Assembly: GCA_946534345.1 (NCBI GenBank)
Contig: CAMNCL010000001.1
Span: 87,175-151,174, forward strand
DNA from: an uncultured Bacillales bacterium
Lineage (GTDB): Bacteria; Bacillota_I; Bacilli_A; RF39; UBA660
Direction: 5' to 3'
DNA: 64,000 nucleotides
The notes under the pieces were generated by a model. It did no database searches, had not been told where the DNA came from, and saw only the letters and a list, made by a program, of their open reading frames with translations. Positions within the stretch are counted from its first letter, which is position 1. The number at the start of each line of letters is the position of its first letter. Shown here piece after piece: positions 16,185 to 64,000 of this stretch. A program made the position numbers and the translations under genes.

Positions 16185-16259
16185 TAGACACTTATTTTTT
16201 GTTCTTTATTGTGCAGGATGCTTATGTTTGTTAATATTATAATAGAAGGGGAAATAGCT

Positions 16260-16829
16260 ATGGGAAAGAAAAAAAGGACTAAAAAACTTACTAAAAAACA
16301 GCTAAAACAGAGAAGACAATTATTAAAAAATACAGTTATTAGTACTTTGTTACTTTTATTAGTATTAGGTGTTAGTTATCTAATATTTGTTACTGATGTA
16401 TTAGAACCTCATGTTAATGAAGTTACTGCTGGCTATATTTCTTTTTATAATAATGATACTACTGATATGATAAAAATAAATAATTTAAAAAAGTTATCTG
16501 ACGATGTAGGTAAAAGTATTGTTAATACTAGATCACAAGAATTAAAAGTTACAGGAGAGAATAATAATAAATATCAAGTTGTTGTATACCCAATGATTAA
16601 TAATATTGATTTGAAATATATTAATTTCTCTATTACTAAAGGAGAAATTACTTATACAAATAATTTAGAAGATATGCCTATAGGTGACGATGAAGGAATA
16701 ATTGTTTATCAAGGAAATGTTTCTGAAGGTAAAGAGTTAACTCTTAGAATGTGGATTTCAAAAGAATATGAGGGTAAAATAGATAATAATTCATTTAGTG
16801 TTAAAATAAATCCAGGACAGGAGAATTGA
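16260..16829 (+). CDS. Hypothetical single-pass membrane protein
   Basis: 'MGKKKRTKK..' basic N-terminus then TM 'VISTLLLLLVLGVSYLIFV', followed by an extracellular domain. RBS 'gaagggg'. Confidence 0.45.
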   Translation: MGKKKRTKKLTKKQLKQRRQLLKNTVISTLLLLLVLGVSYLIFVTDVLEPHVNEVTAGYISFYNNDTTDMIKINNLKKLSDDVGKSIVNTRSQELKVTGENNNKYQVVVYPMINNIDLKYINFSITKGEITYTNNLEDMPIGDDEGIIVYQGNVSEGKELTLRMWISKEYEGKIDNNSFSVKINPGQEN

Positions 16830-16830
16830 T

Positions 16831-17499
16831 ATGGCAGGAAAAGTGATTGTTATTGAAGGAACTGATTGTTCAGGAAAGGAAACGCAAACTAAACTTTTGG
16901 AGGAGAGATTAACTGAATCAGGTAAAAAATGTATTAGATTTAGTTTTCCAATGTATGATACTCCAACAGGTAAAATTATTGGAGGAGATTATCTAGGTAA
17001 ACCTGAAATAGGAGAGAGTTTGTTTAGTGAAGGAGCAGTTAATGTTGATCCTTATGTAGTTAGTCTTTATTATGCTGCTGATAGGAAATATAATATGCCT
17101 AAGATACAAGAGTATTTGAAGAAAGACTACTATGTCATTTTAGATAGATATACTACTTCTAATTTAGCTCATCAAGGAAGTAAGATTCATGATAAAGATG
17201 AAAGATTTGATATGTATCAATGGATAGATAAATTAGAATATTGGTTATTAAAATTCCCTAAGCCAGATAAAACTATATTTCTACATGTTCCTTATGAGTA
17301 TTCTCTTGAGCTTCGTAAGAATAGAGAAACTATTGATGAACATGAAAAATCTACAGAATACTTAAAAGCATCTGAAGAAGCATACGTTGAATTATCTGAA
17401 TTATATAATTGGGATAAGATAGAATGTATAAAAGATAACAAGCTAAGAACTATAGAAGATATTAATGATGAAATACTAAATAAAATTAATGAATTATAA
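16831..17499 (+). CDS. tmk: Thymidylate (dTMP) kinase-like P-loop kinase
   Basis: 'VIEGTDCSGKETQ' P-loop and 'LDRYTTS' DRY motif. 222 aa. Confidence 0.65.
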   Translation: MAGKVIVIEGTDCSGKETQTKLLEERLTESGKKCIRFSFPMYDTPTGKIIGGDYLGKPEIGESLFSEGAVNVDPYVVSLYYAADRKYNMPKIQEYLKKDYYVILDRYTTSNLAHQGSKIHDKDERFDMYQWIDKLEYWLLKFPKPDKTIFLHVPYEYSLELRKNRETIDEHEKSTEYLKASEEAYVELSELYNWDKIECIKDNKLRTIEDINDEILNKINEL

Positions 17500-17527
17500 A
17501 AGCTACTAATTAATAGTAGCTTTTTTA
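17498..17527. terminator. Bidirectional rho-independent terminator between convergent genes
   Basis: Hairpin 'aaagctactaattaatagtagcttt' flanked by A-run and T-run. Confidence 0.7.
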
Positions 17528-19336
17528 TTATTTCTTTATTGGTTGTATTTGTTGAACAGGTTGTATAGGTTTAATTGGTTGTATTTGTTGTACGCTTTGT
17601 GTTGCTTCTGTACTTTGGGCAGCTGTTTGAATAATTGGTTGAGTTTGAAGTGTTGACTGTGCTTGAACAACAGGTTGTGCTCCACTAGAAGCATTTATTC
17701 CAACTACAGCTGTACTTGCTGGTGCTTGTTTAATTGGTTGAACAGGTTGTACAGTTGGAATAGTTGAAACTTTTGGTACAGTTTTAACTGGAGGTACTGT
17801 TGCCTGACTGTTAGCAGTAGGAGTTGTTTGAGTAGGAGTATTTTCCTTCTTTTCTTCTCCTTCACCTTCTTTTTTCTCATCTTCAGCAGGTAATAGTCCA
17901 GCTTCTTTCTTTTCTTCTTCACTCATAAAGTCTGCTGCTGTAAATGCAGGAGCCTCAATTACATTTGAAATATCATTTTCAGTATTTGTTTTCTTAGACT
18001 CATCTAATAAGTCGTCACTTTCTGTTTCAACAATAGCTTCTGGAATAGTAGCTTTAATTTCTGTTGCCATTTCATTTTCATAGTTATCGTCATCTTCATT
18101 TTCAATTTCAATTGTACGATATACTTCTTCAAATGAAGTTTTTCCCTCTAAACATTTTATTAAAGCATCTTGTAACATTGTAATAGTACCACCATCGTAA
18201 ACCATTTTAGCTAAATCTTCTTTTTCAAGATTTTCATTACTAATAGCGGCTCTTATTTGATCAGTTAATTCTAATACTTCATGAACTGCAATACGTCCAT
18301 GGTAACCACGACGACAATGATCGCAACCATGTGGATTAGCATCCCAAACAGTAGCTACATCCATATGCATATATTTTTTAAATACTTTTTTCTCATATTT
18401 AGTAGTTTCTCTTTGATATCTACAGTCAGGACATAACATTTTCGCAAGTCTTTGTGAAATGATACCTGATAGGGCAGTAGATAATAAGTAACGTTCAACA
18501 TCCATATCTAATAAACGTTCAACAGTAGCTAAGGCATTGTTTGTATGGATTGTAGATAAAACCAAGTGTCCAGTAATAGATGCACGTACGGCAATTTGTG
18601 CTGTTTCAGAGTCACGAATCTCTCCGATTAATATAACGTTCGGGTCCTGACGTAAGATAGAACGTAAGGCAGCTGCGAATGTCATACCAATTTCTGCATT
18701 AACTTGAACTTGATTGATACCTTCGATATTCATTTCTATCGGATCCTCAACAGTAATAACATTAGTCTCAGGTTTGTTTAATCCTTGTAGAATTGAATAA
18801 GTAGTTGTAGATTTACCAGAACCAGTAGCTCCAGTAGTAAGAATAATACCATTAGGTATTCCCATCATTCTCTTAATCTTTTCAAGGTTTTTAGGATGGA
18901 AACCTAAACTATCAATACCTTGCAAACTACGAGTATAATCTAAGATACGAATAACTATTTTCTCACCTTCATTAAGTGGTAGTGCAGACACACGCATATC
19001 TAGATAAGTATCACCAAACATACCTTTAATCGCACCATCTTGTGGAAGACGAGACTCTGTAATATTCATATTTGCTAATAATTTTAAACGTGTTGTTAAG
19101 TTTCTTTCATAAGCTTTAGGAACAAAAGTATAATCCTGACAGTCACCATCAATTCTGAATCTTACCATCATTCCTTCTTCACGCGGATCGAAATGAATAT
19201 CTGAAGCGTTATGCTTAGATGCAGAAATAATAATATAATCAGCTATTTGTGTAACAGGAGTCTTAGTAAAATCAAAAGACACCATGAAACTTTCGGTTCC
19301 CTTTTGGACACGTTTGACATCAAATTGAACCATCAT
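17528..19336 (-). CDS. Type IV filament assembly ATPase (GspE/PilB/ComGA family) with a ~190-aa acidic and Pro/Gln-rich C-terminal extension
   Basis: N-terminal GspE-N2-like 'ASDIHF...RIDG', Walker A 'GATGSGKSTTTYS' and tetracysteine 'CPDCRYQ...CDHCRRGY'. Tail 'QPVQPIKQAP...QIQPIKPIQPVQQIQPIKK'. Confidence 0.85.
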   Translation of the reverse strand: MMVQFDVKRVQKGTESFMVSFDFTKTPVTQIADYIIISASKHNASDIHFDPREEGMMVRFRIDGDCQDYTFVPKAYERNLTTRLKLLANMNITESRLPQDGAIKGMFGDTYLDMRVSALPLNEGEKIVIRILDYTRSLQGIDSLGFHPKNLEKIKRMMGIPNGIILTTGATGSGKSTTTYSILQGLNKPETNVITVEDPIEMNIEGINQVQVNAEIGMTFAAALRSILRQDPNVILIGEIRDSETAQIAVRASITGHLVLSTIHTNNALATVERLLDMDVERYLLSTALSGIISQRLAKMLCPDCRYQRETTKYEKKVFKKYMHMDVATVWDANPHGCDHCRRGYHGRIAVHEVLELTDQIRAAISNENLEKEDLAKMVYDGGTITMLQDALIKCLEGKTSFEEVYRTIEIENEDDDNYENEMATEIKATIPEAIVETESDDLLDESKKTNTENDISNVIEAPAFTAADFMSEEEKKEAGLLPAEDEKKEGEGEEKKENTPTQTTPTANSQATVPPVKTVPKVSTIPTVQPVQPIKQAPASTAVVGINASSGAQPVVQAQSTLQTQPIIQTAAQSTEATQSVQQIQPIKPIQPVQQIQPIKK

Positions 19337-19427
19337 TTCAACCCCTTTGTCTACTTTCTATGGTATTTTTATCATAATTATTATATAATGATTTTAAGAT
19401 AATATCAAGGAAAGAGAGAAATAATTT

Positions 19428-20189
19428 ATGAAAAAATTTAATAATAAAGGTTTCGTTCTTGCTGAAACCCTGGTAGTTACAGTTTTCCTAATGACTATTT
19501 TTTCAATGATTTATTACTATTTCTATCCTTTAATTGGTGAGTATGAAAAAAGAGAAGTATATGATGATGTTGACGACAAGTACTCAGCATATTGGATAAA
19601 AAGAATAATAGAAGACTCTGGATATGGAAGTAGTATTGCTAGAACTAGTGTTAAAGGAAAGAATTTTACCCAATATGGTTATTTACGTTTTGAGTGTAAA
19701 GATGTACCTAACACAGATGAAAAAGCTCAAATGTGTAAAACACTTGTCAATGCTTTACAGGTAGCAAACTGTTCTTCAGATGGTAATATGTGTGATATCT
19801 TTTTAACTCCGTATAGAATTGGAGATAATGATCCAACTAAATTGAAGAATTTTAAAGATACAGTAGCTATTCAAGATAGTAAAAAGAAGGGAACTAAAGC
19901 TCTTAGAAGGTTTAGAGAAGAGTGTACTGGAACTGATGCAGCTTGTACTAATGCCTTTGTTGCTAAATGTAAGGCAGCTCATATCTATGATCAAAAAAAA
20001 GAAGATGAAAAGTGTAAGGAATTAGCTAATGAAAAAGTATTTAGTAGTGCTTTTCAAGAATATGTTGCATTATTACCTGATTACAGAAATGCTTCTGCTA
20101 ATAATGCTAAATATAGAATTGTAATAAGATTTAAGCATACTGTTGATAATAATAATTTTTATTCGTATGCTACGATAGAGGTGGGGTAA
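19428..20189 (+). CDS. Type IV prepilin-like protein, cysteine-rich
   Basis: Class III signal 'MKKFNNKG|FVLAETLVV' with Glu at +5 and a hydrophobic helix. 10 Cys in the globular part. Confidence 0.7.
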   Translation: MKKFNNKGFVLAETLVVTVFLMTIFSMIYYYFYPLIGEYEKREVYDDVDDKYSAYWIKRIIEDSGYGSSIARTSVKGKNFTQYGYLRFECKDVPNTDEKAQMCKTLVNALQVANCSSDGNMCDIFLTPYRIGDNDPTKLKNFKDTVAIQDSKKKGTKALRRFREECTGTDAACTNAFVAKCKAAHIYDQKKEDEKCKELANEKVFSSAFQEYVALLPDYRNASANNAKYRIVIRFKHTVDNNNFYSYATIEVG

Positions 20190-20193
20190 GATT

Positions 20194-20820
20194 ATGAAAC
20201 ATTTAAATAATAAGGGAATTACTACCATCGAAGTAATAATATGTTTTATTTTAGTTGTTACTATTTCATCTTCTATGTTTTCAACGGTTGCTGCATTTAA
20301 TGAAAAACGTATTCTAGAACAATATAAAGAAGAAATATATACATATAAAAACTTATTAACAAGAGAAATACAAGATGATTTTATTAAAGTAGGTATAACT
20401 GAAGCCCACTATGATATAAAGGTTACTGGAAATCAAACTACACATACTGTTGATTGTATTATGAAAGATGGTACTAATAGAAGATTAGTAATTAAACAAG
20501 CTTTTGCTTATTCGGATTTTCATCCTTCAGGATCTAGGACTACAGATGATAATTTTATGATTTCTTATGGTACTCAAGAAGATTTAATTGATTATCCTAT
20601 TCCAGAACTAGGATATACCACTAATGAATATGGAAAGAAAGTTCAAGACTTTAGTATCAATAACGTTTTGATTAAGATTGAAAATGATAATATTTTAAGA
20701 ATTTATATAGGTTTTTATCATCCAGAGTTAACTACTAGATTTGGTATTCAAGTTATATGTCCTATAAACTATGTTTCATCAGGAAGAGATGTTTCATCAA
20801 GCCTTAATTTATATGGTTAA
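20194..20820 (+). CDS. Type IV prepilin-like (minor pilin/pseudopilin-like) protein
   Basis: 'MKHLNNKG|ITTIEVIICFILVV' with Glu at +5. Starts 5 nt after the previous pilin gene. Confidence 0.65.
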   Translation: MKHLNNKGITTIEVIICFILVVTISSSMFSTVAAFNEKRILEQYKEEIYTYKNLLTREIQDDFIKVGITEAHYDIKVTGNQTTHTVDCIMKDGTNRRLVIKQAFAYSDFHPSGSRTTDDNFMISYGTQEDLIDYPIPELGYTTNEYGKKVQDFSINNVLIKIENDNILRIYIGFYHPELTTRFGIQVICPINYVSSGRDVSSSLNLYG

Positions 20821-20973
20821 GATCTAATAGCTTCTTTGAAAAATTCTCAAGTATTTAGAATAGTTAATAGAGTACAGTTTAAAACTGTACTTTTTTTGAC
20901 AAGTATTATGATGTTTCAAGCTTTTTCATTCATATTTTTCTTATTATTTGTTATAATTAAATAAGGTGATAAT

Positions 20974-21996
20974 ATGAAGAAATATCTACACGAAGTAAAG
21001 AAAACTATAGTAGAAGAATATAAGTTTATTATTACTTTACTTGTTATATATTGTCTTTTACAAATACCTGTTAATTACTATATTACTGTAGGGGGAGGAA
21101 TTAGTGATGTATCAAGTAGAATTAAAGTAGAAGATAAATATAATAGTAAAGGTAGTTTTAATATAAGTTATGTTACTGAATTAAAGGGTACAGTACTTAC
21201 ATATTTATTAAGTTATGTAGTTCCTACATGGGAAAGAGAAAATGCTAATAATTATAAATATAATGATAAAGAAAGTATTGATGATATTGAATTTAGGAGT
21301 GATTTAGATTTAATTAGTGCTAATGAAAAAGCTAAATACTGGGCTTATACTTTAGCTAATAAAGATATTAAAGAGAAATCTTCTAAATTATATATAATTA
21401 CTATTTTAGATGGATTTAAAACTAATTTAAAAGTACAAGATCAAGTACTAGCTATGGATGATAATTCATATACTGATTATCATGATTATCAAAAATATCT
21501 TCAAACAAAGAATGAAAATGATATAGTAAATGTAAAAGTACTTAGAAATAATAAAGAAAGAATTATTAAAGCTAAATTATATAAATATAAGGATAAAAAT
21601 GGAGAACGTTTAATGTTAGGAACAGGCCTTCAAAATGTAGTTGAATATACTACTAATCCTAAAGTAACTATTAAGTTTAAAGAATCAGAATCTGGTCCTT
21701 CTGGAGGTTTAATAGCTACCTTAGAAATGTATAATCAATTAACTAAAAATGATTTAACTAAGGGTTATAAAATAGCTGGTACTGGTACAATAGAAGCAGA
21801 TGGATCAATTGGTGAAATTGGTGGAATAGAACATAAATTATTAGGCGCAGAAAAAGATAAAGCAAAATATTTTTTGGCTCCAAAAGGTAATTATAAAGCT
21901 GCACTTAAGTATAAGAAAAAACATTCATTAAAAATAAAAATAATAAAAGTAAATAATATAAAAGATGCGATTACAAAGTTGGAGAAGATAAAATGA
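20974..21996 (+). CDS. YlbL-like membrane protein with Lon (S16) protease C-terminal domain
   Basis: 'SGPSGGLIATLEMYNQLT...GTGTIEADGSIGEIGGIEHKL' resembles the Lon proteolytic domain. N-terminal TM. Confidence 0.6.
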   Translation: MKKYLHEVKKTIVEEYKFIITLLVIYCLLQIPVNYYITVGGGISDVSSRIKVEDKYNSKGSFNISYVTELKGTVLTYLLSYVVPTWERENANNYKYNDKESIDDIEFRSDLDLISANEKAKYWAYTLANKDIKEKSSKLYIITILDGFKTNLKVQDQVLAMDDNSYTDYHDYQKYLQTKNENDIVNVKVLRNNKERIIKAKLYKYKDKNGERLMLGTGLQNVVEYTTNPKVTIKFKESESGPSGGLIATLEMYNQLTKNDLTKGYKIAGTGTIEADGSIGEIGGIEHKLLGAEKDKAKYFLAPKGNYKAALKYKKKHSLKIKIIKVNNIKDAITKLEKIK

Positions 21997-38479: not shown

Positions 38480-38562
38480 TGGTATTTTTTTGTTGACAAT
38501 TTTTACAGTATAAATCATTGTTTGAAACTGTTATATATATTAAAATAGTAGTAGGTGAGACT

Positions 38563-39315
38563 ATGAAAAAGAGAAGTAAAACATTGAAAGTAGAATCATT
38601 AGTTTATATATTTGTATTTTTATTATTAGGTGTTGAATTATCCGCAATAGCAGGATTGTTTATAAGTATTAAATCAGGCTATCCCTTTGATGAAATGCCA
38701 GTATATTTAGTGTGTTCATTCTTTGTACTAGTATTTTTTATAGTATGTATTGTTTCATTAGATAGTTTTTTACAAAAAAGAGGTAAAAATAAACTATTTA
38801 AAGTACCAAGTAATATATATGGGCCCTTAAAAGTATTATTAGCTATCGTAGTTACTATAAGTGTACCAATAGTATTATTTTTAATAAGTTATGAAGACTA
38901 TATTAATTTTATGAGAGGATCTAACACAATATATCGTTATGGTTTAGGTGAACAATTAGTAAAAGAAAGCACTGAAATAGATTCGTTAAATACAGTGAAA
39001 AAATATAAAAAACTAAAAAGTAATATTTTTATAAGATATGAATTAAATGATAATAGTATAGTTAATCAAGCTGTATGCTTTATTAAAAATAAAAGACTAG
39101 TATGTTTAGATGGAAATCTTGACAGTAACTATAATTCTAATTATATAAGTTTGATGAAAGCTTTTGGAGATAATAACTGTACTGATTCAAATAAAGTAAT
39201 TTGTTCTGATGATGACTTAGTTGCTACTATGGATAAAAATGGATCGGTATATGTTAGTAATAAGAATAAGACTTGTAGAATCACTGGTGAAGGATCTATA
39301 TGTCATAATAAATAA
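38563..39315 (+). CDS. Hypothetical membrane protein
   Basis: ATG after 'aggtgag'; three TM segments. Confidence 0.45.
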   Translation: MKKRSKTLKVESLVYIFVFLLLGVELSAIAGLFISIKSGYPFDEMPVYLVCSFFVLVFFIVCIVSLDSFLQKRGKNKLFKVPSNIYGPLKVLLAIVVTISVPIVLFLISYEDYINFMRGSNTIYRYGLGEQLVKESTEIDSLNTVKKYKKLKSNIFIRYELNDNSIVNQAVCFIKNKRLVCLDGNLDSNYNSNYISLMKAFGDNNCTDSNKVICSDDDLVATMDKNGSVYVSNKNKTCRITGEGSICHNK

Positions 39316-42052: not shown

Positions 42053-43063
42053 ATGACAAAGAAGCAAAAGAAGATTAAAGGAAAAATATCTAAATACTTA
42101 AAATTTGAAAATGTTATTAGTTTAGTAATTGTATTATTACTTTCATTTGGATACTTTTTAGTAAGACTTACTGATAGTTATATGTTAGAAACGTTCGCTA
42201 TGATTGTATCTTTCATAGTATTATTACTACAAGTAGCATTTAATAAAGCTAAGTTTTCTCATTCTTTATGTACATTATTAATATTTATAGTTTTAAATAT
42301 TATATTAGGATTTATCTTAGGTTTTATTAATTATCCAAAGGGTGGAGTGTTTGTTTATTTTAATATGCTTTATGCATTATTATTTTTTGTAATTTATAGT
42401 GTTGAAACAGCCTTTAAAAAAGAAAAGTATTATATAATTGTTGGAATTATAATCGCAATAGGAGTGATATTATATTTTGCATTAAATTATAATATTAAAC
42501 ATATACGACCAGGATTTTGGTATAAGCCAATAATTTATATTTATCCAGAAGAAGATACGGATGTAGAAATAACTGTATCTAATCCGGAAAATTTAACAGT
42601 AACCTATCCAAAGTATAATGATGGCTGGAAAGTAAAAGCATTAAAAGATGGAACTTTAATAGATAAGAATAATAAAAAGTATTATGCATTATACTGGGAA
42701 GGTAAAGGAGATAATAATACTATTAAGAACGATGGTTTTATAGTAAAAGGTGAAGATACAGCTAGTTTCTTAGAAGAAAAATTAGAAACACTTGGATTAA
42801 ATTATAAAGAAGCTAATGAATTTATAATGTATTGGTTACCTAAACTAGAAAGTAATAAATATAACTATATTAGATTTAAAACAATGGATGAAATAAATAG
42901 TAATATGAAATTAAATATTACTCCTGAACCAGATACATTAATCAGAATAATGATGGAGTATAAAGGATTAGATAAGAAAATAAAAGTTAAAGAACAAAAG
43001 CTAGAAAGAAGAGAAAGATCAGGTTACTCAGTAATTGAATGGGGCGGAACTGAAATAAAATAG
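42053..43063 (+). CDS. Polytopic membrane protein with C-terminal ~180-aa conserved domain (paralog A)
   Basis: Four to five TM helices, then the 'WYKPIIYIYPEED...' domain shared with the next gene. Confidence 0.55.
   Translation: MTKKQKKIKGKISKYLKFENVISLVIVLLLSFGYFLVRLTDSYMLETFAMIVSFIVLLLQVAFNKAKFSHSLCTLLIFIVLNIILGFILGFINYPKGGVFVYFNMLYALLFFVIYSVETAFKKEKYYIIVGIIIAIGVILYFALNYNIKHIRPGFWYKPIIYIYPEEDTDVEITVSNPENLTVTYPKYNDGWKVKALKDGTLIDKNNKKYYALYWEGKGDNNTIKNDGFIVKGEDTASFLEEKLETLGLNYKEANEFIMYWLPKLESNKYNYIRFKTMDEINSNMKLNITPEPDTLIRIMMEYKGLDKKIKVKEQKLERRERSGYSVIEWGGTEIK
42518..43063 (+). repeat. Tandem paralogous segment, copy 1 (copy 2 at 43423..43958); the last 252 nt are about 99% identical, the rest about 85%
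   Basis: Direct comparison of 42812..43063 with 43707..43958 shows only two mismatches. Confidence 0.85.
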
Positions 43064-43073
43064 AGGTGATAAG

Positions 43074-43958
43074 ATGAATAATCAAGAAGAATCAAAGGTA
43101 TTGGAAGAACAAAATGCTGCAGGAACAAATCCTGAAAAAATAGAAGTGGTTGAACACGTTGAATCTAAATTTGATAATCTTCAACCAAGAACAGAAATGA
43201 GTACTATTACTCCGGAAGAAAAACAAGAAATACTTCAAGCCAATCCAACTCCTGAACAAAAGTCAGAAACAAGTAATATGCAGGAACAGCCAGTTAATAA
43301 AAAGAAGAGTAGCGCAACTCCTGTATTAATTGTACTTTTAGTTATATTTGGAGGCATTATTGGTTTTTTCTGGGTAATGTGGCCAAGTATTCAAGCGTCA
43401 ATTAATAATCAATGGGTTAAGCCAGTTATTTATATTTATCCAGAAGAAGATATGAATGTAGAAGTAACTGTATCTAATCCAGAAAAGCTTACAGTAACTT
43501 ATCCAAAATATAATGATGGATGGAAAGTTAAAGCATTGACTGATGGTACCTTAATAGATAAAAACAATAAAAAATACTATGCTCTATATTGGGATGGTGA
43601 AGGTGATGATAGTACTATTAAGAGTGATGGATTTATAGTAAAAAGAGAAGATGCAGAGAAATTTTTAGAAGAAAAATTAGAAATATTAGGATTAAATTAT
43701 AGAGAAGCTAATGAATTTATAATGTATTGGTTACCTAAATTAGAAAGTAATAAATATAACTATATTAGATTTAAAACAATGGATGAAATAAATAGTAATA
43801 TGAAATTAAATATTACTCCTGAACCAGATACATTAATCAGAATAATGATGGAGTATAAAGGATTAGATAAGAAAATAAAAGTTAAAGAACAAAAGCTAGA
43901 AAGAAGAGAAAGATCAGGTTACTCAGTAATTGAATGGGGCGGAACTGAGATAAAATAG
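43074..43958 (+). CDS. Single-TM protein with the same C-terminal domain (paralog B) and a disordered N-terminus
   Basis: 'FFWVMWPSIQASINNQWVKPVIYIYPEED...'. Last 84 aa identical to paralog A. Confidence 0.55.
   Translation: MNNQEESKVLEEQNAAGTNPEKIEVVEHVESKFDNLQPRTEMSTITPEEKQEILQANPTPEQKSETSNMQEQPVNKKKSSATPVLIVLLVIFGGIIGFFWVMWPSIQASINNQWVKPVIYIYPEEDMNVEVTVSNPEKLTVTYPKYNDGWKVKALTDGTLIDKNNKKYYALYWDGEGDDSTIKSDGFIVKREDAEKFLEEKLEILGLNYREANEFIMYWLPKLESNKYNYIRFKTMDEINSNMKLNITPEPDTLIRIMMEYKGLDKKIKVKEQKLERRERSGYSVIEWGGTEIK
43423..43958 (+). repeat. Tandem paralogous segment, copy 2
   Basis: See copy 1. Confidence 0.85.
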
Positions 43959-51882: not shown

Positions 51883-54183
51883 ATGAATAAAAAAGGTTTT
51901 ACTTTGACAGAATTATTAGTCACAATTGTAATACTAGGAATAATTACAGGATTAGCAATTCCAGTATTAAGAATGGTTGAAGGAACTCAAACTGAGAGGA
52001 AATACTCCTTGTATTTAGACAATGTTAAGTATGCTGCGAAAGTATATGTTGATTCATATTCAGTAGATCTCTTTGAAAGTGATACTGGATGTAATTATAT
52101 TACCTATAAGGATATGAGTAAGTATAATTTCTTGAAGGATATTGATATTCCAGAAACAAGTTGTAATACAGATTATACTGTTGTTAAAGTAGTTAAATAT
52201 TATGACCAGTATTATTATAGTCCATATATAGGATGTGGTTCTAAAATTAATAATAAAGTAACTCCTGATATCTTTAAACCATATAAAGTAGGAAAAATAG
52301 ATACTTGTGATGGATCTACTAATGCTATTGCTATAACAGCTACTCCTGATAAAAGCTCTAGTAATACTAATAAAGTAGTTTCTCCTTTTGTAAAATTAGT
52401 ATCAGAAACGGGAGTAAAGAAGTCTCCTTTATTAATTGAATATGGATATAGTAGGGGACAAAATATTGATGTAATTAATGGTTGGACTAAATTAACTTTT
52501 GATGTTCCAGCTAGAGATGTTCAAGAGAATAATATAAAGGCTGTTCGAACTCAAACGATAAATGCTCATAGTCCTGCATTAACTCCTAAAGATACTGGTG
52601 AGTTTTATTTGGTAATAAAAGTTACTTCACTTGTAGATTTACAAGGTAGACCTTGGAAAGAAATTGATGAAAAAGATAATAATAAACTAGATCATTATGT
52701 AATTATTGGACCATATAAAGTTGATAATTCAGCTCCTAAGATTAATTCAATTAATGTTAAATCAAGTAAAGATACACATAATGATAAAACTCCAATTCTA
52801 GAAATAGATGCAGTTGATGAAAAATATTCTTCTATAGGAGAATTAAAAATGTGTTATTCATATGACGATAAACAAGAATGTCCTATTCCAAAGAATGGAG
52901 AAGAATTAAAAAATATGAGTATGTATACTAAATATAATAGTACTCTAGCTTTAAATACAATTAATACAGATTATAATGGTTCTAATCATAAAATATTTGT
53001 AACTGTTGCAGATGCAGCTGGTAATACAACAACACAATCTGTGGATTATGCAGTTTCAAACACTCATACGTTGACATTTAATACTGAGGGAGGCAGTACT
53101 TGTGATCCAATTAAGCAAATAGAAAATAAACCATGGAATGCTAAAGTTATAGAAGATGCTGGTTATGCTAATGGTAATTTCTGTAATACAACAAAAGCTG
53201 GGTCTACATTCTTAGGCTGGTATACAGGTAAGGATGGTACAGGTACTAAAATTAATGCAACTGATTTAGCAACTAAAGATGTAACTGCTTATGCATTATG
53301 GAGCTCAACTAAACCATCTTGTTCAATTACAGCATCAGTAAAACCTAATGCAAATGGTTGGAATAAGACTAATGTAAAATTAACATTAAATAGAAATGGT
53401 CAAGGAATAACTAGTTATGGTTTAGCAAAAACTAAAAATTCTACAAACCAAACTACATCTGTAACAGTTACTGCTAATGGAACTACCACATATTATGGAT
53501 ATGTAGAAACAGCAACTGGTAGTTATACTTGTTCTTATACGGTTAAAATTGATAAAACAGCGCCTACATGCGGAAAATTCACAGGTGGATCTACAACATG
53601 GTCAAACGCTAAGTATAGAACGATAAAAGTTGCTTGTAAAGACAGTGGATCTAAATGCAAAAAAACTCAATTCTCAACTAATGTAAAAAATGAAGTAAAA
53701 ACAAAAAATGTTTCTATTACAATAAAAGACAAAGCAGGAAACACTAGAATTTGTAAAAGTACTCGTAATATTTATCTTGATAGGACTGCTCCAAGATATG
53801 TACCAAAGAGTAAGGGACAATTTATTGCTGATGGTCATAATCAGTGGTATAGTTATTGGGCAGATAGTTTATCTGGACTATCTACCGCAAACTCAGGAAA
53901 TTATTCTAAAATATATTATTGTTATGCAGATTGCAATAGTGGATGTAGTAGTAGTTGCTGTAAAGCTCCAAGACCAAATTTTGAACATCGTGGTACAGAT
54001 GGATATTATTTAAGAGAAGCAGATATTGCTGATAATTTAGATAATGGTAAAAATAAAGATAGAGTATTAATGCAAACACTTAGACGTTGTAATTACGGAG
54101 AATATGCTGTAAGAGCAGATTTCCATATATGTGACCGTGCTAATAATTGTAGTAATTTGTTCTTATATTATAGTTTTGATTAA
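51883..54183 (+). CDS. Giant prepilin-like protein (766 aa) with Flg_new/Listeria-Bacteroides-repeat-like segment
   Basis: 'MNKKG|FTLTELLVTIVILGIITGLAIP' class III signal with Glu at +5. 'HTLTFNTEGG...STFLGWYTGKDGTG...YALW' resembles a Flg_new repeat. Cys-rich C-terminus. Confidence 0.7.
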   Translation: MNKKGFTLTELLVTIVILGIITGLAIPVLRMVEGTQTERKYSLYLDNVKYAAKVYVDSYSVDLFESDTGCNYITYKDMSKYNFLKDIDIPETSCNTDYTVVKVVKYYDQYYYSPYIGCGSKINNKVTPDIFKPYKVGKIDTCDGSTNAIAITATPDKSSSNTNKVVSPFVKLVSETGVKKSPLLIEYGYSRGQNIDVINGWTKLTFDVPARDVQENNIKAVRTQTINAHSPALTPKDTGEFYLVIKVTSLVDLQGRPWKEIDEKDNNKLDHYVIIGPYKVDNSAPKINSINVKSSKDTHNDKTPILEIDAVDEKYSSIGELKMCYSYDDKQECPIPKNGEELKNMSMYTKYNSTLALNTINTDYNGSNHKIFVTVADAAGNTTTQSVDYAVSNTHTLTFNTEGGSTCDPIKQIENKPWNAKVIEDAGYANGNFCNTTKAGSTFLGWYTGKDGTGTKINATDLATKDVTAYALWSSTKPSCSITASVKPNANGWNKTNVKLTLNRNGQGITSYGLAKTKNSTNQTTSVTVTANGTTTYYGYVETATGSYTCSYTVKIDKTAPTCGKFTGGSTTWSNAKYRTIKVACKDSGSKCKKTQFSTNVKNEVKTKNVSITIKDKAGNTRICKSTRNIYLDRTAPRYVPKSKGQFIADGHNQWYSYWADSLSGLSTANSGNYSKIYYCYADCNSGCSSSCCKAPRPNFEHRGTDGYYLREADIADNLDNGKNKDRVLMQTLRRCNYGEYAVRADFHICDRANNCSNLFLYYSFD

Positions 54184-59323: not shown

Positions 59324-62300
59324 CTAAACCCACTTAATTCTAAAATTATTTTTACTTAAGAAATCAGTTATACTTTCCACATAATCTGAGTATGAACTAA
59401 GCTCTTTTATTATTTTATCGCTTAATTCTGGATATTTGTTTAATAATTCTTCTATTGTTCTTTCTACATTATCATTACCATTTATGCTAATTTTTTCTGG
59501 AAGGAATTTATTTAGTCTATTCGTTAATCTCGCCTGACTTGTTTTAGTTAATTCATCTAGTTTTTCTGTTCTAAAACTATCCATTCTTTTTTGATACCAT
59601 TTTCCTAATTCACTATCTTCAGGAATAGACAATTCAATTTCATATGTCCTTTCTTTACAATTAGTATATGTAACTACTTCTCCAGCTCTTTCTTCTACCG
59701 CTTCCATTGTTGAGATAGGATTAACTGTAGCATCTTTGATTTTAGCAGTTCCATCGTATATTCTATCACTACCATTTTTGGCATAATTTGAAGAAAAATC
59801 AATATTCATTTCACCGGCATGAATTCTTTTACTCAAATCAATATCTATATCAACATAATTACCATCTGGACCCTTTTTTCTTGTTCCATCTTTATTATAT
59901 ACATTATCTATAATGTTTTTTGATTCTAAGCTTTCATATTCTTCTTTCACCTTTTTAGACATCGATTGATTTATTTGATTTTCTGTTAGTTCTTTTCCCT
60001 CTTTTTTTGCTTTATCGATTATTTCCTGTCGTAATTCTTGCAACCTACTTTCTGTTATTGTGTATTTTGTTTCTGGTGTTTCATCTAAGCTTAGTCTGGT
60101 TTTCTCTACATCTAATATAACATATTCACCTGTTTGCATCAACAAATTACCATCTTTAGTTAATGCTAGTTTTGCCATGGCATCTCCATCTCTTATACAT
60201 AAAGCAGCATCTTTTAATTTAACAAATTCATCTTCGCTATCTATTAGTTTTCTTAATGAATCTCCATCTATTAAATCGCCTTTTCCGCAGTCGTTCATTA
60301 CTTCTTCTAACTTATCAACACACTCATACCACATTTCTTTATCATCAAAACTACTTATTCCTGATGTTGATTTACTATGTGTCATTGCTAGTAGTGCAGA
60401 AATTTGTGGGTCTATGCCGTCTGGTACTGTTTGTTCTTCCAATATTATTACTGCAGAATTAAGAGGGTGATTCTTTCTAACTGTTAGCGCTAGATTAAAC
60501 TCATTTATTTTAAAAGTTGCACCTTCACCTAATGTTTCCTTTATAGTTTTTTGTAATCCTTCAGGATCTAATGTTAAGTATTTTTTGTTATATTTTTCCA
60601 AGAATTCTGTTGCTTGTTCTTCAGATAATCCTATTTTCTTTAGATCTTTTACAGATGGTTTAAAAACTCCACCTTTCATACCTAAATCATGACATTCTGC
60701 ACTATATTTAATCATTTCAATTTCTTCCTCGGAAAATCCTGCTTTTTGTGCTAACTCAACGGCATAATCTCTAACTAATTTTGTGTGTAGTTCCGCATGT
60801 TCTCTAAAGTTTTTAAAGAATGCATTATAATTAACTCTTGCGACTTCCATTCCTTCATCATATAAATTTGACACTTTAGTTTCATATGCCTTCATATCAA
60901 TTTTCTTAAACAAATCTTCATCACATATTTTTCTTAAATCGTCGGTAGATAAATTATCATTTTTATTTATGACTCTATAAACGATTTGATTAAATATTTG
61001 CTTTTGCATATCATCGCCATACTTTGATAAGTCATCAAGCGTTAATTTAGAACCATCAATTTTAATTAAGTCAAATGATGCTCTTACAGCAAAATCTGCT
61101 TTTTGAGTATCATTCATCATATTTACTATTTTTATTATATCTCCACTTTCTAGCTTTTGAATATTTATATATATATCTTCACCTGCTAGATTATTAATTA
61201 TTCTTTGTATTGATGAATCATTATATTCTGTTAAATACTTTGTAAATGATGCACCCTTTTTGCCAGAAAGGAGATTGTCTGCTAACATTTTTGCTTTCTT
61301 AGGACTTATGAATCCTGATGTAACATTTCTCATTCCATCAGAAACTGTATTTAATCCAAAATATCCAATGATTTCAAATGTTAATAATGCTACATCTCCA
61401 GCTGTTAATTCTCCGCTTTTGGCTTTTTCTACAACTTTCATTATCTGAGGACTTGCTTGGAATCCAGCACCTATAAAATTCATAATAACATTTCCTTTTG
61501 AAAACATCATGTTTAGATTCTTTTCAGATATGAAGTCATTTTTTACAATAGTTGCAACTTCAGACCAGCTAGAAACTTTGGCAGCGTCTATCATTTGTCC
61601 TATTCCAGCACCTGCTTTAGCATTAAATGCCCAGGACATTGCTTCTAAGCCACCTCGGCCGATTATTTTTAAGTTATCTAATAATCCTAAAGTTAAATCA
61701 GTTTCTCCATTATATATGGCATTTTGATAAGCGCTTTCAGCTGCCTCTCCGGATCCTTTTAAGAATCCTAAACCTGCAAATGTTCCAATTATCAATGGAG
61801 TTGCTGTTCCTCCGGTAAATACTTCTACTGCGGCAGCAGCAGCAATTACAATTGTAACTTCTGCAAATGTAGTTATTCCTTTGGCTATCTTACTGTCATA
61901 TTTTATTAATGACTTTTGATTTATATATTTCCCTAAATCAGTTTCTTCATAAAGCTTTTTATTTATTTTTTCAACATGGTCTACTGCTGCAAATTTTCTT
62001 AAGTCGTTTGCAGCATCATCAGCACCTAATAAGTCGAGTGCCCCTGCAATTGCGTATCCAAATAATCCATCTATTATTATTGCTTCTAATATATTTCCTA
62101 GTGCACTCAATATAGAAGTTCCTATTACAGAACATGTTGCTAATTGAGAAACTTTTACATTTATTCTTTCTCTAATAAATCCTGTGAAATGTTTTCCTAT
62201 ATGAGCACCAGTATTTTTAAATGCATCCCAAAGATGATTAGATTCATTTTCTGTAAGTGGTAAACTAGTCATTCTAGCTCCAGTTGCATCAATGTTTCCT

Positions 62301-62920
62301 GTAGTTATTACAGGTCTTGAAGATTGCATTGTTTTACCTGCTACCTTTGCACCAGTGGCACTAACACCACCACCTCTACCAGCAATACCTGTAGTTATTC
62401 CAGTTAAACCTCCAGACTTTGAAGATGATTTAGTGCTACTACTTGAAGGTGATGACCAACTACCACCACCACCGCCACCAGAACCACTAGTAGCAGAAAA
62501 ACTACTTCCTCCTGTATTTGCAGTACTTCCTGTGGTATGGTTTCCAGGAATGTTAGTATTACTATCTAATGAAGTATCTTTATTAATCTCTCCTGTTGTT
62601 TGATTTATAGTATCTGTCTTAGTAGTTTCGTTTGTTAAGTTTTCACTTGTTACTTCACTTGAACTTGTAGTAGTATTTTCTATATTTACATTTTCTTTAA
62701 CAACTTTTTGAGCTTCAGTTGTTGCGGCTTTTGCTCCTTCTCCAAAGATATCTCCTAAATTTAATGTTGTCATTTCTGAAGATTTGTTAATCTCTCCAGT
62801 AGATTGTTCTACGGATGATAAATTGATAGTAGATTTATCAATTGATGAACCACCGATAGAAGAGGCTTTGCTTCCTACTGGTCCGGTACTAATATTATGA
62901 TCTGTTATAAAATAACCCAT
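59324..62920 (-). CDS. Giant (1198-aa) signal-less multidomain protein: S/T/G-rich N-terminus, Gly-zipper hydrophobic module, HD-hydrolase-like domain
   Basis: The N-terminus 'MGYFITDHNISTGP' is not a signal peptide. 'SGSGGGGGGSWSSPSSSS' is low complexity. Hydrophobic 'AIIIDGLFGYAIAGALDLLGA' and 'VTIVIAAAAAVEVFTGGTATPLIIGTFAGLGFL'. '..ELHTKL..' and 'YSAECHDLGMKGG' give an H...HD pattern, then 'RKNHP...AMTHSKS'. Confidence 0.75.
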   Translation of the reverse strand: MGYFITDHNISTGPVGSKASSIGGSSIDKSTINLSSVEQSTGEINKSSEMTTLNLGDIFGEGAKAATTEAQKVVKENVNIENTTTSSSEVTSENLTNETTKTDTINQTTGEINKDTSLDSNTNIPGNHTTGSTANTGGSSFSATSGSGGGGGGSWSSPSSSSTKSSSKSGGLTGITTGIAGRGGGVSATGAKVAGKTMQSSRPVITTGNIDATGARMTSLPLTENESNHLWDAFKNTGAHIGKHFTGFIRERINVKVSQLATCSVIGTSILSALGNILEAIIIDGLFGYAIAGALDLLGADDAANDLRKFAAVDHVEKINKKLYEETDLGKYINQKSLIKYDSKIAKGITTFAEVTIVIAAAAAVEVFTGGTATPLIIGTFAGLGFLKGSGEAAESAYQNAIYNGETDLTLGLLDNLKIIGRGGLEAMSWAFNAKAGAGIGQMIDAAKVSSWSEVATIVKNDFISEKNLNMMFSKGNVIMNFIGAGFQASPQIMKVVEKAKSGELTAGDVALLTFEIIGYFGLNTVSDGMRNVTSGFISPKKAKMLADNLLSGKKGASFTKYLTEYNDSSIQRIINNLAGEDIYINIQKLESGDIIKIVNMMNDTQKADFAVRASFDLIKIDGSKLTLDDLSKYGDDMQKQIFNQIVYRVINKNDNLSTDDLRKICDEDLFKKIDMKAYETKVSNLYDEGMEVARVNYNAFFKNFREHAELHTKLVRDYAVELAQKAGFSEEEIEMIKYSAECHDLGMKGGVFKPSVKDLKKIGLSEEQATEFLEKYNKKYLTLDPEGLQKTIKETLGEGATFKINEFNLALTVRKNHPLNSAVIILEEQTVPDGIDPQISALLAMTHSKSTSGISSFDDKEMWYECVDKLEEVMNDCGKGDLIDGDSLRKLIDSEDEFVKLKDAALCIRDGDAMAKLALTKDGNLLMQTGEYVILDVEKTRLSLDETPETKYTITESRLQELRQEIIDKAKKEGKELTENQINQSMSKKVKEEYESLESKNIIDNVYNKDGTRKKGPDGNYVDIDIDLSKRIHAGEMNIDFSSNYAKNGSDRIYDGTAKIKDATVNPISTMEAVEERAGEVVTYTNCKERTYEIELSIPEDSELGKWYQKRMDSFRTEKLDELTKTSQARLTNRLNKFLPEKISINGNDNVERTIEELLNKYPELSDKIIKELSSYSDYVESITDFLSKNNFRIKWV

Positions 62921-63159
62921 AGAACATCTTCCTTTTGCTTATTTTTTATCCTAAATTAAGTATAGCATATGCCCAGAATTATATAATATAAAAAATGTTT
63001 ACTTTACGTTAAATAACTGTAGATAAAAATGATTTAATCAAAGTATTTATATGTATCATGTATTTTTGTACCATGTATATAACTATGTTACTTACTCAAA
63101 GTACATCGTTTCTATTTTTCGGAAAAACTATATATAGTATAAAGAATATGTCAAGTTTA

Positions 63160-63196
63160 CAAAAAAGCAATGATATTTGTAATTTTGTGTGATAAT
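63160..63196 (+). promoter_or_regulatory. Promoter with extended -10 'tgtgataat' in the divergent intergenic region
   Basis: TGnTATAAT-like element about 22 nt upstream of the GGAGG RBS of the 63219 gene. Confidence 0.45.
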
Positions 63197-63218
63197 ATTA
63201 GTATAGGAGGTAATAATT

Positions 63219-63512
63219 ATGGGAGAAAGAATACATGTAGAAGAAAGTGCACTAAATGAATTAAAGAGTGCTTTAGAAACAGCAGGTAATGGATATAAAA
63301 GAGAACTTGCTAGATTAACTGCTTTAATTGAAGAAATCACAAGTGGTCATATACAGGGAGACCCTGCTGAGGATTTATTAGCTAAGTATAAAGCTAAGGA
63401 AGATGATTTCAAATCTCTTGCAAAAGCAATAGATGATGCTGAAGAATATGCAGGAGTTAAAGGAACAAGTTTTACAGATATGATTACAGAATTAAAACAA
63501 AGAGCAAAATAG
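63219..63512 (+). CDS. Small alpha-helical protein, WXG100-like / LXG-associated (DUF3130-type?)
   Basis: 97 aa, predicted helical hairpin, strong GGAGG RBS, first gene of a tight operon. Confidence 0.5.
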   Translation: MGERIHVEESALNELKSALETAGNGYKRELARLTALIEEITSGHIQGDPAEDLLAKYKAKEDDFKSLAKAIDDAEEYAGVKGTSFTDMITELKQRAK

Positions 63513-63527
63513 AAGGGAAGATGAATT

Positions 63528-63797
63528 ATGAATTTAACAATAATGCCAGGAGCAGCTACAGAAGATGTGGCTCAAATTGAAAGTCTTGTTCAAAATATTG
63601 ATGAATATATGACTGAACTAAATGATGTAATAAAAAAATTAATACCTAGTGGAATAGAAACAGATTGGTCTGAAGAATTATTAAATAAATGGACTGAATG
63701 CTACAATGGAAGTGTACAAAATGCCATGGAAGGTATGCTTTTAAGTGCTAAGAACTTAAAAATGGCTATTGATGCAGCATTAGAATATAATAAATAA
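63528..63797 (+). CDS. Small alpha-helical protein, second LXG-associated-like (DUF3958-type?)
   Basis: 89 aa, helical, contains W..W ('ETDWSEELLNKW'). 15-nt spacing from the upstream gene. Confidence 0.5.
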   Translation: MNLTIMPGAATEDVAQIESLVQNIDEYMTELNDVIKKLIPSGIETDWSEELLNKWTECYNGSVQNAMEGMLLSAKNLKMAIDAALEYNK

Positions 63798-63820
63798 TTA
63801 GAAGGTGAAACGTGAGTAAT

Positions 63821-64000
63821 ATGTTACCTGTTGGAAGCAAGGTAAAATTAAAAGATGGAAGAATTTTGGTAATAATTGGTTATTTACCAAATAAACCTAA
63901 TGATGAAAAACTATATGATTATATTTGCTGCAGAAATATATATGGTATTAGACACAAAAAAGAAGATTTAGTTTTAGATAGAGATTATTTTTATATAAAC
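63821..64000 (+). CDS. DUF4176-like small protein; 3' end beyond the window
   Basis: 'MLPVGSKVKLKDGRILVIIGYLP' fits the remembered DUF4176 pattern MLP.GS.V.LK.G....I. No stop before nt 64000. Confidence 0.5.
   Translation, partial: MLPVGSKVKLKDGRILVIIGYLPNKPNDEKLYDYICCRNIYGIRHKKEDLVLDRDYFYIN

Follow-up and report, generated by a model that had tools for sequence, protein, structure and literature searches.

The locus considered here raises the question of how a filament might be assembled from a gene cluster that specifies an assembly motor and two prepilins, with no platform or peptidase gene beside them. It lies in a stretch of 64 kb from contig CAMNCL010000001.1 of an uncultured Bacillales bacterium (this whole stretch is referred to below as the window), where the gene for a GspE/PilB-type ATPase faces, across a short gap, two genes for prepilin-like proteins, called here pilin 1 and pilin 2. 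A first-pass annotation, made from the letters of the window alone, described the three genes as a “minimal” type IV filament module. The analysis reported here points to a different answer: with some reservation, the trio, which is conserved in the clade of related bacteria, is likely to be one piece of a dispersed type IV filament system. Such a system would most likely be a Gram-positive type IV pilus or a Com-like filament whose genes are scattered along the chromosome instead of being collected in one operon.

The divergent trio and the other pilin genes

The identification of the ATPase is straightforward. Residues 26-407 of the protein match the T2SSE family PF00437 in Pfam (4.7e-116), its best matches in NCBIfam are the models for GspE (TIGR02533) and PilB (TIGR02538), and the closest protein in the PDB is GspE (4pht, 1.9e-98), the best solved relatives being GspE, PilB and PilF. 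The earlier assignment of the gene, on the minus strand, to the GspE/PilB/ComGA class therefore stands. At the level of the subfamily, the scores lie below the equivalog cutoffs for both GspE (453 against 630 bits) and PilB (436 against 676 bits), and the 264 bits obtained with the ComGA model NF041000 do not reach its cutoff of 300. Nor is the gene the first in a colinear comGA-comGB-comGC operon, an arrangement that forms part of the definition of ComGA, since the layout is divergent and comGB is missing from it.

Because the alignments begin well inside the GspE and PilB profiles (at profile positions 106 and 178, respectively), the protein lacks the N-terminal N1/MshEN domains. Its catalytic core consists of the N2 domain and the C-terminal ATPase domain (approximately residues 1-410, nucleotides 18107-19336), and a CxxC...CxxC zinc motif lies within the latter. 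The Walker A, Asp box, Walker B and His box motifs are all present in the window protein; all 79 orthologs have the Asp box and tetracysteine motif, and by strict patterns 73 of them have Walker A, 74 have Walker B and 71 have the His box. The core is followed by a low-complexity tail of about 190 residues (approximately 411-602, nucleotides 17531-18106) which is rich in T, E, A, Q, P and V. This tail is disordered, clade-specific and variable: its length ranges from 20 to 679 amino acids (aa) across the 79 orthologs, whose total length reaches 1100 aa, and it contains no transmembrane (TM) segment. To our knowledge, no characterised PilB, GspE or ComGA protein has a comparable tail.

Table 1. 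Filament-related features of the window, with positions counted from its first nucleotide (an arrow marks the predicted cleavage site of a prepilin).
Feature	Position	Strand	Details
Hairpin resembling a terminator, between tmk and the ATPase gene (convergent)	17498..17524	+	11-bp stem, then T-run
GspE/PilB-type type IV filament assembly ATPase, 602 aa	17528..19336	-	PF00437
Divergent intergenic region, 91 bp	19337..19427	.	promoter-like sites and ribosome-binding site
Pilin-like protein 1 (putative minor pilin), 253 aa	19428..20189	+	leader MKKFNNKG, mature FVLAETLVV...
Pilin-like protein 2 (putative minor pilin), 208 aa	20194..20820	+	leader MKHLNNKG, mature ITTIEVIICF...
Third prepilin of the window, 766 aa, modular	51883..54183	+	MNKKG↓FTLTELLVTIVILGII...; TIGR02532, PF07963, PF09479

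The two proteins encoded opposite the ATPase each have a short basic leader, a glycine at position -1, a glutamate at position +5 and a hydrophobic stretch (KG↓FVLAE in pilin 1, KG↓ITTIE in pilin 2). The class III signals of the pattern G↓F/I-x-x-x-E that the first-pass annotation had reported are thus present, and the open reading frame (ORF) coordinates agree exactly with its description of an ATPase gene lying opposite two plus strand prepilin genes with a gap of 91 bp. When the whole window is scanned in six frames with a regular expression for the prepilin motif, the motif is found four times, and three of these occurrences lie 8-12 residues from the start of an ORF. The gene for pilin 2 begins 4 nucleotides past the stop codon of pilin 1, and this spacing indicates that the two are probably co-transcribed. 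The intergenic region contains a promoter-like site for the ATPase on the minus strand (TTGATA-17-TATAAT, 19408..19380) and a weaker one on the plus strand (TTGTCT-17-TATCAT, 19347..19375), but promoter-like sites are no more numerous in the region than expected from shuffled sequence, and the two serve as positional leads only. The ribosome-binding site GGAAAGAGAG precedes pilin 1.

The arrangement is retained across the clade. One genome per species was scanned for relatives of the ATPase, which gave 283, and the best 80 of these 283 were compared. All 80 belong to uncultured bacteria known from metagenome-assembled genomes of the gut or rumen and named as Bacilli, Mollicutes, Tenericutes or Erysipelotrichaceae bacterium; they include a complete circular genome of 1.31 Mb (OZ006981.1), and genomes of the clade measure about 1.3 Mb. 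Pilin 1 is present in 78 of the 80 species and pilin 2 in 75, and the comparison of synteny that had been proposed as a check finds the divergent layout of the trio in at least 72 of them, always between tmk and ylbL. Approximately 77 of the 78 orthologs of pilin 1 and 74 of the 75 orthologs of pilin 2 retain Gly(-1) and Glu(+5), with the remaining sequence diverging to 22-30% identity. That these two residues persist while the heads diverge is an argument that selection for cleavage by a peptidase and for assembly into a filament continues.

A measure of selection over a shorter range is provided by the comparison of the window with near-identical strain contigs, for which the counts are small. 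The ATPase differs between strains by two non-synonymous and seven synonymous changes (per-site rates pN 0.0014 and pS 0.0178, pN/pS approximately 0.08) and is under purifying selection at this level, and the neighbouring YlbL and tmk genes show synonymous changes only. Pilin 2 shows 4-9 non-synonymous against 0-2 synonymous changes; where synonymous change is present (8-9 non-synonymous against 2 synonymous) pN is close to pS. Diversifying selection acting on a surface subunit may be the cause, the counts being small. The strain differences as a whole fit a conserved motor combined with a fast-evolving surface subunit. The same behaviour of pilin 2, its loss or fragmentary state in a few species, the fragmentation of the operon and the reduction of the genomes would also be expected if the trio were what is left, in decay and no longer working, of a comG or pil operon inherited from an ancestor. 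This explanation is very improbable, however, given that the ORFs are intact in 75-80 species that span 60-99% ATPase identity, that the catalytic and signal motifs are conserved, and that the ATPase has the low pN/pS ratio cited above.

Pilins 1 and 2 are both put forward as putative minor pilins. Pilin 1 is cysteine-rich, as the first-pass annotation had stated, but eight cysteines are counted in it and not ten. G8, F9, E13, C90, C103, C115 and C122 are invariant among its 52 closest database homologs, in which four further cysteines are at least 90% conserved, and a conserved YPLIGEYEKRE-YDD motif follows the mature N-terminus. Across the 80 species representatives the cysteine count ranges from 2 to 12, and the eight-cysteine form is not general in the clade. 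The family is modest in size and lineage-restricted, since the pilin 1 profile finds 787 representatives at E <= 1e-3 in 1.84 billion proteins. Orthologs of pilin 1 are 174 to about 500 aa long (a call of 809 aa in one species is due to a mis-called ORF start), and those of pilin 2 range from 160 to 841 aa and grow by C-terminal additions.

Structure prediction, which had also been proposed as a check, gives confident AlphaFold 2 models of both proteins, neither of which has a fold match in the PDB. The model of pilin 2 (predicted local distance difference test score, pLDDT, 89) consists of a 58-residue helix (residues 9-66) followed by a ten-stranded beta domain and is compatible with the general pilin plan; no PDB match is found for it below E 0.047 with Foldseek, the best being lipocalin-like barrels. 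The model of pilin 1, made from 53 sequences (pLDDT 86, predicted template modelling score 0.78), starts with a helix at residues 10-39, beyond which the head is mostly helical and has a few strands; Foldseek finds no PDB fold match for it (best E 0.69). The canonical type IV pilin has a protruding alpha-1 helix of approximately 50 residues that packs on a head made of beta-sheet, and pilin 1 is atypical in this respect. Neither protein matches a Pfam family, PF07963 included, at E <= 0.1, or the NCBIfam model TIGR02532 at E <= 1. Weak N-terminal matches to ComGE/ComGD are found for both in NCBIfam, that of pilin 2 to ComGE having an E value of 6e-4.

The trio is not the only source of pilins in this genome. 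The 766-aa prepilin of the window (MNKKG↓FTLTELL) matches TIGR02532 (8.4e-7), PF07963 (8e-7) and the Listeria-Bacteroides repeat PF09479 (1.9e-7), has a cysteine-rich C-terminal region, and is encoded by a solitary gene with no pilus-machinery genes adjoining it. Approximately 1.5-3 kb upstream of the window, on overlapping contigs (L086:1-1288 and L093:76-2803), lie the genes of two PilA-like pilins of 188 aa (MNNKG↓FTLVELL) and 207 aa (MKKINSKG↓FTLIELL), both of which match PF07963. The first-pass annotation had missed the 766-aa prepilin as well as this pair. The pair is preceded by a gene for a signal-peptide/TM-anchored surface protein of 449 aa, and the order of the locus, dnaG-sigA-trmK-X-pilin-pilin-nfo-PBP2B-rpmG-efp, is kept in relatives. 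Five prepilins with class III signals are therefore encoded in or adjoining the window. The relatives have solitary genes for small pilins (146-154 aa), flanked by housekeeping genes, and also encode giant pilins, 989-1182 aa in length. The reading of the trio as a self-contained “minimal” module is consequently not supported: three or more additional prepilins are encoded in this genome, at two loci apart from the trio, the relatives likewise carry additional solitary pilin genes, and the filament genes of the clade are dispersed. The right flank of the window, covered for 5.6 kb, carries DUF4176 genes and no pilus genes, and no regulatory motif common to the three pilin loci is detected, terminator T-runs and -10 boxes being all that they share.

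It might be argued from these results that the adjacency of the trio is meaningless, the ATPase serving other pilins (such as the PilA-like ones) or playing a ComGA-like role unconnected with pili, and the divergent pair encoding surface or membrane proteins that form no filament. The failure of pilins 1 and 2 to match either a pilin hidden Markov model (HMM) or a pilin fold, the short helix and atypical head of pilin 1, and the lack of a common regulatory motif would all be accommodated by this view, but the pairing in at least 72 of 80 species, while ylbJ, tmk and the gene for the TM206 protein (described below) come and go around it, and the conservation of the class III signal would not; we regard it as quite improbable.

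The position of the pilin pair suggests how a dispersed arrangement could have arisen. In the Erysipelotrichales, a related order, a canonical comG operon is located just upstream of efp (PMC12786226). Here, the region upstream of efp as far as dnaG contains no intact comG operon: PBP2B-rpmG-efp is preceded by the two pilins and, farther upstream, by the 449-aa surface protein, trmK, sigA and dnaG, and the gene for the ATPase is found 16 kb downstream of efp. The synteny in the Erysipelotrichales, taken with the positions of the pilin pair and the ATPase relative to efp, is consistent with the fragmentation of an ancestral operon.

Platform, peptidase and the proposed assembly

The search for a T2SSF platform protein (PilC/GspF/ComGB) and an A24 prepilin peptidase (PilD/ComC) covered 1.44 Mb of DNA, made up of the 64-kb window, its flanks of approximately 11 kb, the 10 kb on either side of the module in the 80 species, and five pilin-pair loci. 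The E. coli proteins GspF and GspO were used as phmmer queries, and HMMs were built from 92 PilC sequences from AT-rich genomes and from 19 PilD sequences. No platform gene was found with phmmer or the HMM in the window, the flanks or the neighbourhoods in the 80 species, and no peptidase match was obtained in the 1.44 Mb with GspO or the 19-sequence PilD HMM. The absence of both genes from the vicinity of the trio, noted originally for 15 kb on either side, thus holds for the whole window and for 10 kb on either side of the trio in the 80 related species. A weak HMM match (E 5e-4) was traced to a truncated membrane protein which was judged by eye to be a permease-type transporter, and not PilC.

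Positive-control loci were collected by scanning metagenomes with an AT-rich back-translation of the T2SSF motif M[VI]xxGEx[ST]GxL[DE], which yielded 120 loci, none of them from the clade (ATPase identity at most 52%); the same loci supplied training sequences for the HMMs. A search of plasmids for a Firmicutes PilC had yielded proteobacterial proteins only. The phmmer search with GspF finds 122 T2SSF matches across these loci, so the detection procedure works on AT-rich genomes. The usual order of genes in the control loci is pilB-(pilT)-pilC-pilins-(pilD), and a T2SSE ATPase lies within two genes of PilC in 46 of the 49 cases in which PilC has at least two neighbours on each side, which bears out the original remark that a divergent, non-colinear layout is unusual.

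One interpretation of these results is that the clade has lost PilC/ComGB and possibly employs a peptidase outside the A24 family, the ATPase engaging an unrecognised membrane partner or its disordered tail replacing the missing contacts. The complete absence of platform and peptidase genes from the 1.44 Mb of clade DNA in a sensitive HMM search with a positive control, an ATPase that lacks the N1 domain and carries a clade-specific tail of 20-679 aa, and genomes reduced to about 1.3 Mb are all in keeping with such a loss. The DNA examined is, however, the same neighbourhood of approximately 20-75 kb in many species, and for any single genome it makes up roughly 5% of the total (some 75 kb in and around the window, with the matching neighbourhoods in the relatives). 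Given that the pilin genes of the clade can be seen to lie apart, among housekeeping genes, at no fewer than three loci, solitary pilC and pilD genes elsewhere are the simpler expectation, and a prepilin peptidase of the classical kind is implied by the near-invariance of Gly(-1) and Glu(+5). Every characterised type IV filament machine, moreover, reportedly includes both a platform and a peptidase, a generalization that Denise et al. are said to have drawn in PLoS Biol in 2019. The loss of the platform is accordingly an unlikely explanation. We think it improbable that complete genomes of the clade will prove to be without a T2SSF platform, and have similar doubts that the clade builds its filaments with a PilB-like ATPase, an unrecognised partner (contacted possibly through the tail) in place of the platform, and two pilin families of new fold.

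The analysis shows the identities and motifs of the genes, the clade-wide synteny, the dispersal of the pilin genes, and an absence of platform and peptidase genes that is local; the reading preferred here is that of a dispersed filament system whose PilC and PilD are probably encoded elsewhere in the genome. Several of the results weigh against this reading. Not one T2SSF platform or A24 peptidase gene occurs in all of the 1.44 Mb; the adjacency of ATPase and PilC is otherwise near-universal (46 of 49 controls) and is seen in none of the 80 species of the clade; the N-terminal helix of pilin 1 has only 30 residues, and its helical head has no pilin-like fold match; and the failure of both pilins to match TIGR02532 or PF07963 must be counted on the same side.

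If the dispersed genes do act together, the ATPase would be a hexameric GspE/PilB-type motor which powers the extension of the filament from the cytoplasmic face of the membrane. Pilins 1 and 2 would be co-transcribed prepilins that are cleaved after the conserved glycine by a prepilin peptidase, whose existence we infer from the conservation of Gly(-1), and they would enter the filament as minor subunits with a priming or tip function. The PilA-like pair whose genes precede PBP2B-rpmG-efp would probably form the bulk or shaft of the filament, adhesive modules could be contributed by large modular pilins (the 766-aa protein, for example), and the platform (PilC/ComGB) and the peptidase (PilD/ComC) would be expected from genes elsewhere. 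The function of such a filament would presumably be adhesion, DNA uptake, or both.

Neighbouring genes

The genes that flank the trio are those named in the first-pass annotation, tmk (PF02223) and a gene for a YlbL-like protease with Lon_C and PDZ domains. The protease, at 20974-21996, is of the YlbL/SepM type; its score with NF041438, the model of the SepM family (a pheromone-processing S16 protease), is 155 bits, short of the cutoff of 200. Its position beside the pilin genes reflects ancestral ylb synteny, and it is probably unrelated to them. In approximately 60 of the 80 species, pilin 2 and ylbL are separated by an oppositely oriented gene for a YlbJ-like membrane protein of about 295 aa; the species of the window and its closest relatives lack this gene and have only a 153-bp spacer (20821-20973 in the window). 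This polytopic protein was considered as a candidate peptidase or platform and rejected, since it is a YlbJ homolog (TIGR02871, 1.7e-22) belonging to an ancestral ylbJ-ylbL neighbourhood. A gene for a protein of about 235 aa beside the ATPase in a sub-clade has no match to the PilD HMM, and its product resembles, by eye, a glycerophosphodiester phosphodiesterase. The bitopic protein TM206 (16209-16829) was rejected as an analogue of PilN/PilO: it has no support in Pfam or NCBIfam and is missing from many species.

Some further genes of the window are recorded here in their own right. Adjacent paralogs of 336 and 294 aa at 42053-43958 share a near-identical C-terminal domain of about 190 aa (...KPVIYIYPEED...YSVIEWGGTEIK) joined in each to a different N-terminal part, which is of membrane or disordered type; the ORFs of three small polytopic membrane proteins come next, and no Pfam match above threshold is found in this region. 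A 265-aa membrane protein with a cysteine-rich extracellular C-terminus (...CFIKNKRLVCLDG...NNCTDSNKVICSDD...KTCRITGEGSICHNK), without a Pfam match, is encoded at 38518-39315 and is another cysteine-rich surface protein of the same organism. At the right end (59324-64000, continued on contig L220:353-6256), the minus strand encodes a protein of 1198 aa whose N-terminal region is rich in Gly and Ser, and the plus strand carries the gene of a 97-aa helical protein and, just past the end of the window, three DUF4176 genes. This part of the window and its right flank are taken by us to resemble a variable region of the type VII secretion or toxin kind, the Pfam matches being not significant.

Relation to known systems and significance

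One of the closest known systems is the Gram-positive type IVa pilus of Clostridium perfringens, C. difficile and Streptococcus sanguinis (the last with modular pilins), which likewise has a PilB/GspE-type ATPase with a tetracysteine motif, short-leader prepilins of the pattern G↓F/M/I-x-x-x-E, and several minor pilins together with large modular ones (766 aa here, up to 1182 aa in the relatives). The type IVa loci are, however, colinear and include pilC, pilD and pilM/N/O, often with pilT, whereas here the ATPase faces two pilins alone. The present ATPase also differs in lacking the N-terminal domains and in carrying a disordered tail, and the heads of the pilins in having no recognisable fold relatives.

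The Com pilus of Bacillus subtilis and Streptococcus pneumoniae (comGA-GG plus comC) shares with the present system its occurrence in monoderm Bacilli and an ATPase that consists of N2 and C-terminal domains only, and the N-termini of pilins 1 and 2 are weakly ComGE/ComGD-like. The present locus departs from it in the absence of comGB and of a colinear operon, in the retention of the zinc-binding subdomain by the ATPase, in GspE and PilB scores (453 and 436 bits) that exceed the ComGA score (264), and in the size of the pilins, which are 190-250 aa long compared to approximately 100 aa for ComGC. The type II secretion system supplies the best sequence match of the ATPase in GspE (TIGR02533; PDB 4pht and 1p9r), but here the host is monoderm, no secretin or GspC/L/M/F is found in the DNA covered, and the ATPase lacks the N1 domain that binds GspL.

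The new elements of the present work are the divergent trio conserved in the clade, the two pilin families of unrecognised fold, and the unusual domain make-up of the ATPase. The main text of the RFN20/RF39 genome papers contains no account of pili or competence, their supplements do not list KEGG numbers for pilB/C/D or comGA/GB/C, and no description of surface filaments of the clade was found in the papers searched. In the survey of Imam et al. (2011; PMC3244431), in which a pilus operon was defined as pilB plus pilC, no type IV pilus genes were found in the Mollicutes examined. A rule that requires both genes would miss the system of this clade, and automated pilus detection would overlook it as well, because it relies on colocalised ATPase and platform genes; the two pilin families escape Pfam, NCBIfam and fold searches alike.

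The bacteria of the clade, which we take to be RFN20/RF39-like, are common in the guts of humans, ruminants and rabbits and have very small genomes. The retention in about 80 species of a motor with its own pair of pilins, in addition to scattered and giant pilins, suggests that filaments matter to these organisms for attachment to hosts or partners or for the uptake of DNA. If the platform should truly be absent, the clade would break a rule that reportedly holds for every known type IV filament machine.

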